Shown: positions 37,535 through 41,040, numbered from the stretch's first letter. The stretch is 64,000 nt of DNA from Mycoplasmatales bacterium (GCA_963692675.1 OY830043.1:20563-84562), one strand, 5' to 3'. Numbers and translations: made by a program. Notes: a model not told the origin generated them from the sequence alone.

Positions 37535-38821
37535 TTATTCTCAATCCTCTGTATCCCCAAACTCATCATCGAAGTCTTCAGTACTTGTTTCATCTTCATC
37601 ATCGAAGTCTTCAGTTGATCCTTCAACTTCATCTAGTTCTTCAACTTCTTCAACTACTTCATCTTCTTCATCAAAGTCTTCATCATCTTCAACTTCTTTT
37701 TCAGCTTCTTCTTTTCTTTTTAGTTTTGCCAAACGTTTAGCTTCCTTTTTTTCTCGGCGAAGTCGTTTGCGACGTTGGCGAGGTGTTTCTTCTGGTTCTA
37801 CTTCTTCTTCTTCATCTTCTGGTATTTCTTCAGTTTCTAAAGTTTCATCGGTATATTCTTCTGGTTCAATTGCTACATCATATTCTTCTTCAGAAATAGG
37901 CTCGACTTCATCACCTATGTTAACTTGTTGCATTTCCTGTTGACGTTTTCTTACTAATGCAACATCACCATGGTTTTGGAATTCTTCAATTAATTCTTTA
38001 ATGTTTTCCCGAACTTTCTTTTCAGAAACCCTAATGTCTTTCTTAATCTTATTCAAGTTTTCAGGTGCAACATTAACAATTACTTGAGCTCTAACCAAAG
38101 GTCTACTTTTATAAGCATAACCACTTTCTCTCATTTCCACAACAGTATTAAAATCTATACTATTATCAGTAATAGTACCAACTATTTCATGACGAGCAGG
38201 AACATATTTTGCTCCAGTTTTTACTTTGTATTCTTTTGCTCCACTTTCTTTTAAGTATGATGCAAATTCACCACTTGTTTTATCAATGCTGTCTGCATAT
38301 TCTCTAAGTTGAGTAGATAAGCTTGCTAAATCAACAGATTTTTGTTGAGTTAAAAGAAATAATTCTCTTAGGTGTTTTTCTAATCTAGCAACTTCTTCTT
38401 GACGAACTGCATCCCGAATTTGTTGAGCGAAAGCATTAACCTCAGGTTCTAATTCTTGGCGAAGAGCTTCTTCTTGTTCTTTAAGTTTTACATTTGTTAA
38501 GCTGCTTTGGTACTTAATTTCCTCTACATGGAGTGCTTCTAAATCTTCAATTTGTTTTTCAAGTTTAGAAATATCTTCTTTTAATTGGGTAACAATTTCA
38601 TTACGTTTTGCACTTTCTTCTTCAAATTTTTCAGCATAACTTTGTTCAAATGCTTCCTTTTCTAATTTCATTTCATTCAAGAAATTTTGAAACATAATTG
38701 TTTGTTGTCTCAAAGCTCATCGATAATTTCTAACCTCTTTTACAGGATCTGGATCACTTAATTGTTCTTCTAATCCGCTAAATGTATTAAAAATTACATC
38801 TCTTTTTACATCTAAACTCAT
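37535..38821 (-). CDS. coiled-coil protein with GrpE-like C-terminal beta-domain followed by a long acidic/basic/acidic low-complexity tail (428 aa)
   Basis: ATG 38819-38821 follows AGGAGAGG. The N-terminal roughly 170 aa have heptad-like charged helices. The segment KYVPARHEIVGTITDNSIDFNTVVEMRESGYAYKSRPLVRAQVIVNV has the same pattern as the canonical GrpE here (DPFDPKIHNAISIV...GVIIEVLTPQYKLNEKIISYSKVKVAI). The tail ends DFDDEFGDTEDWE. The family assignment comes from a by-eye motif comparison only. Confidence 0.65.
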
Positions 38822-38926
38822 CTTTACCTCTCCTAACTTTCCCTACACTGTAATTATAACAAAAAAATAAAAAAGCCAACTGTTTTTTGAAATTCTATTT
38901 TTTAAAATAATTAACTTTTTTTATCA

Positions 38927-40666
38927 TTAATTTTTAGTACCACTTGCTTTTGCAATTCGAAAATCCTCTTTTCTTAAGGATGCTGTCATGATTGCATTCA
39001 AACTAGAGATATCTCGGCTTTTTAAATACTTTGCTATTAATTGATATTCCTTTAAAAACTCTTTCCGTTCATTAGTCGGAATTGATTTTTTTCTAATTAG
39101 TTTTTTTAGCATCATTTGGCGAGCAAACATCTTATTTAAGAGTTCAAGTTCTTTACGCTTTCGCTCAAATTTTTTCTTATTTACTTTGGCTTCATTAATT
39201 AACCGAGCAAGGATTTCTTCTTTCATATAATCATTAGAAGTGATTTGAATTTCTTTAAAATTATTTGTTTCTCGATTCATTACCGATGCATGAATAAGAC
39301 CATCATCATCAATTTGAAATTCAACAAACACATAGACCTTTCCTTGTTTTCCTAGTGGTAAATCATTAAGAAATATTGAACCAAGAAATTGGTTATCCTT
39401 TGCAATGGGACTTTCTCCTTGATAAATACCAATATCAACAGCTTCTTGGTTATCTTCAACAGTTGCATATTTCTTAATAACTCGAATAGGAATTCGGGTA
39501 TTCTTTTTTATTAAAACATCCATTCTTCCTAAATGGGCCTCTATTCCTAATGCTAAGGGCGTAATATCTCGTAGCTGAAATTTAAAAACACTTTCTTCTC
39601 TCATAAATTCAGCTTGTAATGCAGCTCCTACTGCTATTGATTCATCAACATTAACATTCTTGGCAATTTTCTTTTTTCCAAAAATATCCTCAAGCATATT
39701 TTGTAATAAAGGAATTCTTGTTGATCCCCCAACAAGAACAATTTTAGAAATATCCGCAAATTTAACTCTGGCACTATCGACTGCTAATTTTAGTTTTAAT
39801 ATGGCTCTTTTAACTAATCGTTCAATGTTTTTTTCTAATTCTGCCCGAACTAAAATGTACTCAAAATTATAGGGAGTCCCAGAAGGGAACATAGCTAAAA
39901 AAGGTAATGAAATGGTAGCTGTTCTAGCAGTGCTTAATTCTATTTTTGCTTTTTCAGCTGCATCTTTTAATCGTTGTTTAATTAAATTATCATTATCAAA
40001 ATTAATATTTCGATTTTCAATTCTAATTCGTCTTTTAAGCATTTGAATTATGACTTCATCAATATCATCACCACCTAAAAAATTATCCCCTGCATTGGAT
40101 ATAACAAGATAATCTTCATCTTTTCTTTCTAAGATTGAAATATCTAAAGTTCCTCCGCCCCAATCAAAGACCAGAAATTTTTCTTTTTCTTTGGTATCAA
40201 CAGCATATGCTAATGCAGCAGCAGTGGGTTCATTAATGATACGATCAACCATTAACCCTGCGATTTTTGCTGCAGTAATAATTGCATGCCGTTGTTTATT
40301 ATTAAAATGTGCAGGTACAGTAACAATGGCATTTGTTATTTTTTCTCCGATATATTCTTCAGAATAATACTTTAAATATCCAAAAATATATGAGGCAATT
40401 TGTTCAGGAAAATAGCTTTTGTTATTACATGCTATTTTCTCATCTGTTCCCATATATCTTTTTACTCCAGTAATTGTATTTTCATTTGTTAATGCTTGTC
40501 TCTTAGCAACATCACCTACTAAGTATTCTGTTCCCTTAAATGATACAACAGAGGGAGTTAAGCGGGCCCCTTCCATATTGGGGATTACTTTAACATTGTT
40601 TCCATCATAATAAGCCACACAACAATTAGTGGTCCCAAAATCTATTCCTATAACTCGTTTTCCCAT
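38927..40666 (-). CDS. second, divergent Hsp70 (DnaK paralog), 579 aa
   Basis: Uninterrupted ORF. NBD motifs are [36 protein letters not shown] and [13 protein letters not shown]. An SBD beta-sandwich (DITPLALGIE...) and a basic helical lid are present. There is no acidic tail. Confidence 0.9.
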   Translation of the reverse strand: MGKRVIGIDFGTTNCCVAYYDGNNVKVIPNMEGARLTPSVVSFKGTEYLVGDVAKRQALTNENTITGVKRYMGTDEKIACNNKSYFPEQIASYIFGYLKYYSEEYIGEKITNAIVTVPAHFNNKQRHAIITAAKIAGLMVDRIINEPTAAALAYAVDTKEKEKFLVFDWGGGTLDISILERKDEDYLVISNAGDNFLGGDDIDEVIIQMLKRRIRIENRNINFDNDNLIKQRLKDAAEKAKIELSTARTATISLPFLAMFPSGTPYNFEYILVRAELEKNIERLVKRAILKLKLAVDSARVKFADISKIVLVGGSTRIPLLQNMLEDIFGKKKIAKNVNVDESIAVGAALQAEFMREESVFKFQLRDITPLALGIEAHLGRMDVLIKKNTRIPIRVIKKYATVEDNQEAVDIGIYQGESPIAKDNQFLGSIFLNDLPLGKQGKVYVFVEFQIDDDGLIHASVMNRETNNFKEIQITSNDYMKEEILARLINEAKVNKKKFERKRKELELLNKMFARQMMLKKLIRKKSIPTNERKEFLKEYQLIAKYLKSRDISSLNAIMTASLRKEDFRIAKASGTKN

Positions 40667-40776
40667 TTTATTCCCAATTAGTATTTTATCTATTTTTATT
40701 ATAAATTACTAATTATGAAAATATTATTAGGTAAACTGCTAAGCTCAATCCATAGAAAATGAATTATTGCAAAAAA

Positions 40777-41040
40777 CTAGTTATAAAAAGTTGGGCTTAC
40801 AGTTTGACTATGAATAATTTCTCTACTGGTAGCAGCTTTTTCACTATTTCATTCTCCTGAAATACCTAATGGTAATTTTAATTTCCCTTCAGATGAAGAA
40901 AGAAGTTTTTCTAATACAGGAACTCCAAATATTAAAGCTAATATTCCTGAAATAATGGTGCTAAAAGCAAAGCCACCAATAATTTTTTTTTCATCTTGCG
41001 CATCTAATTGTAAGAAATCTGCTTGTAATTTTTTATTCAT
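40777..41040 (-). CDS. 87-aa peptide with double-glycine-leader-like N-terminus and one hydrophobic helix
   Basis: ATG 41038-41040 lies 5 nt after AAAGGAGGG. The N-terminus is MNKKLQADFLQLDAQDEKKIIGG, followed by FAFSTIISGILALIFGVPVL. The track stop at 40849 is TGA, and the real stop is TAG at 40777-40779. Confidence 0.55.

Follow-up and report, generated by a model that had tools for sequence, protein, structure and literature searches.

The 64,000-nucleotide stretch of a Mycoplasmatales bacterium analyzed here (GCA_963692675.1 OY830043.1:20563-84562; hereafter the window) carries, between positions 37,535 and 41,040, a module of three genes that encode an 87-aa product (the peptide), an Hsp70 paralog (Hsp70') and a 428-aa GrpE-like protein (GrpE'). 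Judged from sequence, the module is a functional chaperone pair restricted to one lineage, accompanied by a small membrane gene. We consider it probable (about 0.6) that Hsp70' and GrpE' constitute a second Hsp70 cycle peculiar to this lineage, which would operate beside the DnaK system controlled by HrcA and its operator CIRCE (controlling inverted repeat of chaperone expression).

The source genome is that of an uncultured Mollicute of ~0.8 Mb. Its Mollicutes origin is supported by a reduced mraZ-rsmH-ftsA-ftsZ cluster, low GC content (26-36% per 2-kb segment of the window), a source contig of 791 kb and the genetic code. The genome uses code 4, as indicated by 40 in-frame TGA codons against 11 TGG codons in 15 confidently identified genes of the window. 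Since TGA stands for tryptophan in this genome, the view under translation table 11 is fragmented; MiaB and the GrpE-like open reading frame (ORF) are split under table 11 and whole under table 4. The original prediction, made from the sequence alone, had placed three co-directional genes on the minus strand, and their ORFs are recovered exactly under table 4:

40777-41040, minus strand: peptide gene, 87 aa, ORF under table 4 (a TTG one codon upstream of the start gives an alternative of 88 aa)
38927-40666, minus strand: Hsp70' gene, 579 aa, ORF under table 4
37535-38821, minus strand: GrpE' gene, 428 aa, ORF under table 4

The known copies of the family belong to two metagenomic clades, between which synonymous sites are saturated. 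Clade A comprises the window, a 105-kb contig (represented by the protein P0002) and a 174-kb contig (the source of locus L003), and clade B comprises loci L001, L002 and L004, whose Hsp70' proteins share 94% identity with one another. All three genes evolve under purifying selection, with dN/dS values of 0.04-0.36 that resemble those of neighboring housekeeping genes.

The Hsp70 paralog, the GrpE-like protein and the peptide

GrpE' is, on the combined evidence of sequence profiles and structure prediction, a true GrpE homolog with the full GrpE fold. The original prediction had read a GrpE beta-domain pattern in the central segment of the 428-aa protein and had proposed a profile search as a check; the match to the Pfam GrpE profile (PF01025) scored 40.6 bits (E=2.8e-10), well over the gathering cut-off of 25.8, and it aligned residues 75-250 to profile positions 4-164 of 165. 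In addition, hhalign against canonical GrpEs returned a probability of 95% (E=3.5e-8). An AlphaFold2 model built from a 14-sequence alignment contains helices at residues 26-160 and 166-192 and strands at residues 196-250, with a predicted local distance difference test (pLDDT) score of ~80 in the beta-wing. When this model was compared with the PDB by Foldseek, all of the 12 top matches were GrpE chains, among them 1DKG, 4ANI, 9BLS, 3A6M and 8GB3, with E-values from 2.6e-6 upward. Furthermore, PARHEIV and GYAYKSRPLVRAQVIVN in the beta-wing line up with two canonical motifs, P..H.AI and GY...R.IR.A.V.V, of the genome's own GrpE and of E. coli GrpE, so that Pfam, hhalign, Foldseek and the motif alignment agree on the pattern first proposed. 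E. coli DnaK and GrpE served as reference sequences here and for the signature residues considered below. No GrpE model of NCBIfam matched GrpE', and a sequence search of the PDB with the GrpE' profile yielded a GrpE match at E=0.84, which is not significant; the coronavirus S2' fragment at the top of that search was rejected as a spurious coiled-coil similarity.

The protein is divided into a head, a GrpE core and a charged tail, with two extra helices (residues 253-299) following the beta-wing:

38666-38821, minus strand: GrpE' residues 1-52, family-specific N-terminal head, near-invariant, predicted to be helical with an SDPDP break
38072-38599, minus strand: GrpE' residues 75-250, GrpE core (stalk helix, short helical domain and beta-wing), from the extent of the Pfam match
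37538-37921, minus strand: GrpE' residues 301-428, charged tail with a net charge of -47, from composition

The head is 92% identical between clades, in comparison with 42-57% in the remainder of the protein, and it matched nothing outside the family among 1.84 billion representative proteins. The tail consists of an acidic tract (residues 301-345), a basic helix (residues 346-372; PRQRRKRLRREKKEAKRLAKLKRK) and a second acidic tract (residues 373-428) in which TEDFD recurs and which ends in D[WF]E; TEDFD and the C-terminus are invariant. In an AlphaFold2 model from a 4-sequence alignment, the tail has a pLDDT below 50 except for the basic helix (~90). In the relative P0002, which is 485 aa long, the tail unit composed of the acidic tract and the PEETPRQRRKRL..KLRK basic helix is duplicated internally, which suggests that tail length changes by repeat expansion. 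GrpE' (isoelectric point, pI, of 4.5 in the window copy) has a dN/dS of 0.22-0.36 and an overall identity of 58% between clades. By analogy with characterized GrpEs, it would homodimerize and speed the release of ADP from its partner Hsp70.

The canonical GrpE (window 24416-25111; L001 6209-6904) evolves unusually fast, with 42% identity between clades in comparison with 82% for DnaK and 75% for ClpB, and is overall less conserved than GrpE' (42% vs 58%).

Hsp70' is complete in its nucleotide-binding domain (NBD), the beta-subdomain of its substrate-binding domain (SBD-beta) and its lid, and the window copy has a pI of 9.3. It belongs to the Hsp70 family and is not a DnaK equivalog, since it matches the Pfam HSP70 profile at E=7e-144 and falls below the NCBIfam cut-offs for DnaK (NF001413, 541 vs 648 bits; TIGR02350, 530 vs 823 bits). 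The HscA models score lower, at 314-367 bits against cut-offs of 620-743 (best 367 vs 708), and DnaK models score best. An assignment to HscA or HscC was therefore rejected because the equivalog cut-offs are unmet and no hscB, iscU or djlC neighbor is present in the window or in the loci of relatives. Hsp70' shares 41.7% identity with the genome's own DnaK and ~42-44% with every sampled DnaK of the Bacillota or Mollicutes. In a neighbor-joining tree of these DnaKs it lies on a long branch and is sister to its own DnaK in 25 of 100 bootstraps; the tree favors neither duplication within the lineage nor transfer as the origin of Hsp70'.

The catalytic residues D8, K70, E171, D194 and T199 are kept, as are R167, N170 and T173, and Hsp70' may thus be called ATPase-competent by sequence. 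This is in line with the earlier description of a complete but divergent Hsp70 with intact ATPase motifs, which the full Pfam match and these residues bear out. Within the exchange signature, K55, R56, L257, R261 and E267 are kept, and the substitutions E264D and V59L are conservative. We take K55/R56, L257/R261 and E264/E267 to be the mark of GrpE-dependent nucleotide exchange in Hsp70s; Brehmer and colleagues are said to have described, in 2001, the exchange signature of the GrpE-dependent Hsp70 type.

Outside the NBD core, the paralog is remodeled. Its interdomain linker reads FQL[RK]D in all orthologs versus the canonical VLLLD, arch residues are changed (M404H/Y and A429V), and residues that contact DnaJ are replaced (Y145H and D148N), while V436, I438 and Q433 of the substrate pocket are unchanged. 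The lid carries a net charge of +16 versus -8 in the DnaK lid, and the protein ends without an acidic C-terminal tail. Purifying selection on Hsp70' (dN/dS 0.04-0.18) is distributed unevenly: between clades, the NBD is 84% identical in both Hsp70' and DnaK, whereas SBD-beta is 74% identical in Hsp70' and 93% in DnaK, and the lid 43% and 66%, respectively. Because SBD-beta and the lid are freer in Hsp70' and the NBD is equally constrained, the pattern is compatible with a conserved engine for ATP hydrolysis and nucleotide exchange combined with a narrower or shifted client range.

The opposite overall charge of the two pairs is a further distinguishing feature. DnaK (pI 5.6) is paired with a basic GrpE (pI 8.6-9.5), whereas Hsp70' (pI 9.0-9.3) is paired with an acidic GrpE' (pI 4.4-4.5). 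The inversion is confined to the Hsp70' lid (+16 vs -8) and to the stalk and tail of GrpE' (tail -47); the NBD has a net charge of +2 in both Hsp70s.

The peptide contains a single hydrophobic segment at approximately residues 20-44, with a mean Kyte-Doolittle hydropathy of up to 2.27 and a small-xxx-small "zipper" formed by G23, S27, S/A31, A35 and G39. Its conserved motifs are DEKKI[IV]GG, K[LV]KLPLGISGEW and EIIHSQTVSPTFYN. Orthologs occupy the same position in L003 and L004, and a dN/dS of 0.16-0.21 indicates purifying selection. No match to the peptide was found in Pfam, NCBIfam, PADLOC or PHROGs, and the 64-kb window holds no paralogs elsewhere of the peptide, the GrpE' N-terminal head, the GrpE' tail or the Hsp70' lid.

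Distribution, gene order and expression signals

The family is extremely rare. Five relatives of GrpE' were found among 5.8 billion proteins, and an exhaustive search of 1.84 billion representatives with the GrpE' profile returned the family itself and weak matches confined to the GrpE core, which are taken to be canonical GrpEs. A large homology search with a mixed GrpE/GrpE' profile gave 10 matches. Hsp70' has two close relatives, followed by canonical DnaKs at ~45% identity, none of which carries the signature substitutions of Hsp70'. The representative genomes of GTDB contain no match to the GrpE' profile, nor to the HrcA of the window, and a scan of Joint Genome Institute (JGI) metagenomes with the GrpE' profile gave no match, although L001 itself comes from a JGI sample. 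The latter (JGI 3300021792, Ga0226836) also yielded a metagenome-assembled genome of the Aquificaceae (PMC8208693), which hints at a hydrothermal or marine setting for the clade-B relatives. Two Hsp70s of 764 and 785 aa with duplicated canonical DnaK blocks (P0008 and P0009) were set aside as probable chimeras of metagenome assembly and not counted as relatives.

The order greA-peptide-Hsp70'-GrpE' occurs in every contig that reaches far enough; the three genes are thus syntenic in all relatives, the outcome on which the original prediction had made its module depend. In clade B, CIRCE and the canonical clpB-hrcA-grpE-dnaK-dnaJ operon come immediately after GrpE', while in L003 a hydrolase gene is all that separates GrpE' from that operon. 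In the window the distance is 9.2 kb, with the same gene order within the operon in L001 and L003. The earlier estimate of about 10 kb therefore holds for the window but describes a derived state, since the operon directly abuts the module in relatives. In L004 (5436-6647), a contig marked "3x", the GrpE' ortholog is broken up into three or four ORFs; because the pieces are highly similar to L001, the split most likely reflects frameshift errors from low coverage rather than a pseudogene.

The signals that precede the module and the canonical operon are as follows:

41045-41053, minus strand: ribosome-binding site (RBS) of the peptide gene, AAAGGAGGG, with its AGG core kept in L003 and L004
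40698-40703, minus strand: TATAAT -10 box upstream of the Hsp70' gene, conserved
38853-38861, minus strand: extended -10 promoter TGTTATAAT of the GrpE' gene, conserved
38827-38834, minus strand: RBS of the GrpE' gene, AGGAGAGG, with GAGGTAA kept in all four lineages
21440-28311, minus strand: canonical clpB-hrcA-grpE-dnaK-dnaJ operon, outside the module, from its ORFs
28324-28440, no strand assigned: three tandem degenerate CIRCE-like inverted repeats upstream of clpB, with 45 nt spacing

Around the -10 box of Hsp70', TTTATAAT is kept in the window, L003 and L004 despite a between-clade dS above 1. At the GrpE' promoter, the window, L003, L004 and L001 share an identical TTTTTTGTTATAAT between flanks that have diverged. 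Since the -10 boxes are invariant across clades, Hsp70' and GrpE' each appear to have a separate promoter of the sigma-70 type that does not depend on CIRCE. The 105-nt spacer between the Hsp70' and GrpE' genes and the extended -10 element within it had been noted before, and both are read directly in the sequence, the latter at 38861-38853. A strong RBS had been ascribed to each gene; this description fits the peptide (AAAGGAGGG) and GrpE' (AGGAGAGG) but not Hsp70', which has only the weaker GGGAA/AGGA. No CIRCE-like repeat is present in the intergenic regions of the module, CIRCE being found only upstream of clpB, and no J-domain was detected in the module by Pfam and NCBIfam scans, nor an HPD motif in GrpE' or the peptide. 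The pair accordingly lacks both CIRCE and an adjacent J-protein, as was originally described.

The canonical GrpE of the operon matches its Pfam profile at E=3e-24. Upstream of clpB, the best CIRCE copy has 3 mismatches to the full 27-nt consensus, and the CIRCE-like repeats are accompanied by duplicated TGTTATAAT promoters; over 28324-28460, the repeats are interleaved with a duplicated TTTTCTGTTATAAT promoter. Relatives of clade B have two better-conserved CIRCE elements and one promoter at this place (clearer in L001 and L004). From its sequence, the region upstream of clpB in the window looks like a local tandem duplication of an operator-promoter unit.

Between the module and the canonical operon, the window contains an island of four nuclease and nucleotidase genes (30301-37325), two of the EEP family, one SNase-like and one for a double 5'-nucleotidase. 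They encode membrane-anchored enzymes of nucleic-acid scavenging: an EEP protein of 424 aa, an SNase-like protein of 350 aa, a double 5'-nucleotidase of 1051 aa and another EEP protein of 441 aa. The island is present in the window and absent from all relatives. Short pieces of both of its ends survive in L003 (11285-11992), suggesting that L003 lost the island when the two EEP paralogs (51% identical) recombined. Because of this absence and of the deletion remnants in L003, the island is considered unrelated to the module, and the link that had been drawn between the Hsp70/GrpE pair and an exo-enzyme island is not sustained.

Other features of the window were noted in passing. Two paralogous membrane-anchored genes resembling alpha/beta-hydrolases, at 28903-30072 (minus) and 47544-48719 (plus), are 59.6% identical and lie ~17 kb apart, with a weak Pfam Hydrolase_4 match just below the cut-off. 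The adjacent genes at 5833-6765 and 6805-7626 (minus) encode predicted membrane proteins without a Pfam match, of which the 273-aa member combines a transmembrane segment near its N-terminus with an acidic region and an RRRRRK patch at the C-terminus. The FeoA/FeoB genes for a ferrous-iron transporter (43746-45981, minus) lie upstream of miaB in this ~0.8 Mb genome, and the order mnmA-feoA-feoB-miaB-ECF S-greA is kept in L003.

Proposed mechanism and alternative explanations

In the proposed second cycle, GrpE' dimers would open the NBD of Hsp70' for the release of ADP in the manner of canonical GrpE, and the pair would be expressed constitutively (probably) rather than as a heat-shock response, serving a narrow set of clients. 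Private specificity would be conferred by the N-terminal 52 residues of GrpE' together with its acid-basic-acid tail. The TEDFD-bearing tail (-47) would engage the basic lid of Hsp70' (+16) and thereby control substrate release or localization. In the solved complex of GrpEL1 with mtHsp70, one GrpEL1 protomer touches basic residues of the SBD-alpha lid with its beta-wing (PMC12987570). Since the tail of GrpE' emerges just past the beta-wing, and the beta-wing touches the lid in that complex, the tail appears well placed to reach the basic lid; by analogy, we infer a contact between the two. As a more speculative step, the peptide would be a putative membrane partner of the pair, either as an anchor or as a dedicated client. 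In the latter case, Hsp70' would bind the conserved KLPLGISGEW of the peptide, comparable to the binding of LPPVK of IscU by HscA, with the stretch KLKLPLGISGEW as the candidate segment. Conserved adjacency and a motif resembling those bound by Hsp70s make the peptide the best candidate for a membrane partner or dedicated client, an assignment more speculative than that of the pair itself.

Several observations weigh against a dedicated second cycle. Allosteric coupling could be weaker in Hsp70' because of its altered linker (L390Q and L392R/K). Only synteny and co-occurrence point to Hsp70', and not DnaK, as the target of GrpE', and cross-talk with DnaK may take place, since the NBD charge and the GrpE-contact signature are alike in both Hsp70s. 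The module does not encode a J-domain partner. The peptide has an ambiguous topology and is tied to the chaperones only by adjacency in a region whose order is conserved in any case (miaB, ECF-S and greA included). Additionally, the earlier AlphaFold2 model of GrpE', from the 4-sequence alignment, was poor and its beta-domain unusable, and the second model reached a mean pLDDT of 72 with low TM-scores. The low TM-scores reflect the monomeric state of the model and its extended helix, and the fold assignment thus rests on the Foldseek E-values. Finally, with two clades only, comparative power is limited.

Among the alternatives, a plain division between housekeeping and stress functions, in which Hsp70' would be a constitutive, general-purpose DnaK copy (as Hsc70 is to Hsp70), the peptide unrelated and the tail tolerated low-complexity sequence, is a serious though unlikely explanation. 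It would account for the lack of CIRCE and the presence of own promoters, for the retained pocket residues V436, I438 and Q433, for a tail of variable length whose unit is duplicated in P0002, and for a regional gene order that is generally conserved. However, a general chaperone would be expected to keep SBD-beta under the constraint seen in DnaK, which is at odds with the 74% vs 93% observed, and the linker, arch and lid of Hsp70' are remodeled. Moreover, the conservation of the GrpE' head (92%) and of TEDFD and D[WF]E is unlike neutral low-complexity sequence, and duplication of dnaK normally tracks large, complex proteomes (PMC11019930), not a genome of ~0.8 Mb. Rather improbable, in turn, is the most elaborate version of the scheme, in which the three genes would constitute a minimal, membrane-tethered private Hsp70 machine, electrostatically orthogonal to DnaK-GrpE and similar to organellar import motors. 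In such a machine, the zipper peptide would oligomerize and recruit Hsp70', or be its sole client through KLPLGISGEW, while GrpE' would dock by its N-terminal head and its TEDFD tail would gate release at the lid or add entropic pulling.

The assignment of GrpE' to another partner was also considered, namely canonical DnaK, or a heterodimer with canonical GrpE, leaving Hsp70' without a dedicated nucleotide exchange factor (NEF). The GrpE-contact signature shared by the two NBDs would permit it, as would the own promoter of GrpE' and the fast evolution of canonical GrpE (42% between clades), and in Myxococcus xanthus both GrpEs can bind DnaK1 (PMC11019930). Nevertheless, GrpE' has been seen only with Hsp70', always immediately downstream of it; grpE of the canonical operon is still intact and subject to purifying selection; and the complementary charges of lid and tail are specific to the paralog pair, which makes such an assignment quite improbable. 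We give still less credence to the peptide as a double-glycine-leader precursor (a bacteriocin or signaling peptide) that would be cut after GG and exported, with Hsp70' and GrpE' escorting it, maturing it or protecting against it. The conserved F-x2-L-D-x2-DEKKI[IV]GG does resemble the leader positions (-15, -12, -8, -4, -2 and -1) and is followed by a hydrophobic helix, but the GG also suits the start of a glycine-zipper transmembrane helix, no bacteriocin or leader model of Pfam or NCBIfam matched the peptide even at E<=1, neither the 64-kb window nor the loci of relatives show an evident ABC transporter with a C39 peptidase domain, and selection on the peptide is ordinary purifying rather than diversifying. 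A decaying duplicate, a mobile element or phage/defense cargo is hardly credible and is largely refuted. The extreme rarity of the family and the variable island next to the module are the observations in its favor; however, the ORFs are intact in both clades (the sole fragmented copy being on the 3x contig), dN/dS is 0.04-0.36, the chromosomal place between greA and clpB is fixed, and the GC content of the module equals that of its surroundings. PADLOC gave no match for any of the three proteins and PHROGs none for GrpE' and the peptide, and a defense or phage origin was ruled out on these empty scans.

Comparison with known systems

The closest counterpart described is found in M. xanthus, in which MxDnaK2 (MXAN_6671) and the GrpE of its operon (MXAN_6672) are not heat-induced and have clients enriched in membrane proteins (PMC11019930). 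As in the module, a second DnaK paralog and its own GrpE are encoded at one locus, separate from the stress system. In contrast to the M. xanthus pair, which belongs to a large and complex genome, Hsp70' and GrpE' occur in a Mollicute of ~0.8 Mb; the gene order in M. xanthus is opposite to Hsp70'-GrpE', the MxDnaK linkers are near-canonical, and reports on it mention neither a small membrane gene nor an invariant N-terminal head nor a polyacidic tail. Orthology of the two pairs is unlikely. Because of this dedicated, non-heat-shock dnaK2-grpE2 operon, the kind of system must be regarded as already known, and the original statement that no such module had been described was too strong (PMC11019930). 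What is new is the reduced Mollicute host, the architecture of GrpE', the basic-lid Hsp70 with an altered linker and the small membrane gene conserved alongside. Only a single DnaK/DnaJ/GrpE set is listed in reviews of Mollicutes chaperones (PMC4014445), and literature searches yielded neither an account of another DnaK or GrpE from Mollicutes nor a description of a GrpE with an invariant head and a 130-residue acid-basic-acid tail.

Relative to the canonical DnaK-GrpE systems (E. coli 1DKG and Geobacillus 4ANI), the module retains a complete Hsp70 with its catalytic and exchange residues and an NEF with a stalk, a short helical domain and a beta-wing. However, it is devoid of CIRCE/HrcA control and of a J-protein, and its genes are arranged as Hsp70 followed by GrpE, not as grpE followed by dnaK. 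Hsp70' differs from canonical DnaK in its linker (FQLRD vs VLLLD), its basic lid and the absence of an acidic tail. Canonical GrpE N-termini are disordered and poorly conserved (PMC12987570), whereas the N-terminus of GrpE' is ordered and invariant, and the protein carries ~180 additional C-terminal residues.

In concept, the module resembles HscA-HscB-IscU and HscC, in which a diverged Hsp70 is devoted to one or few clients through a short motif. The motif of IscU that is bound by HscA is LPPVK, and HscA and HscC are not known to have GrpE dependence or the exchange signature. Unlike these proteins, Hsp70' keeps the exchange signature and has a GrpE of its own, with no hscB or iscU nearby. 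The specialization of an NEF by duplication and by added or modified termini has parallels in mtHsp70-Mge1/GrpEL1 and in vertebrate GrpEL1/GrpEL2. The contact of the beta-wing with a basic lid is documented there as well (PMC12987570). In the mitochondrial import motor, Hsp70 is held at the membrane through small partners; for the module, a membrane link is suggested by the adjacent gene, and no Tim44-like or J-like component was found. In entropic pulling of the Hsp110 type, a bulky NEF appendage could add excluded volume (PMC12305717), but the parallel with the acidic appendage of GrpE' is conceptual only; Hsp110 is a relative of Hsp70 with a fold unrelated to that of GrpE.

Duplication of dnaK correlates with large, complex proteomes (PMC11019930), and the presence of a second Hsp70/NEF pair in a Mollicute of ~0.8 Mb runs against this trend, implying a specific need that has survived genome reduction. 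The module is thus a natural system for the study of communication between an NEF appendage and an Hsp70 lid, and it could show how two Hsp70 cycles stay separate within one very small cell. If orthogonal to DnaK-GrpE, the pair would be usable as an insulated chaperone module in minimal-cell engineering.

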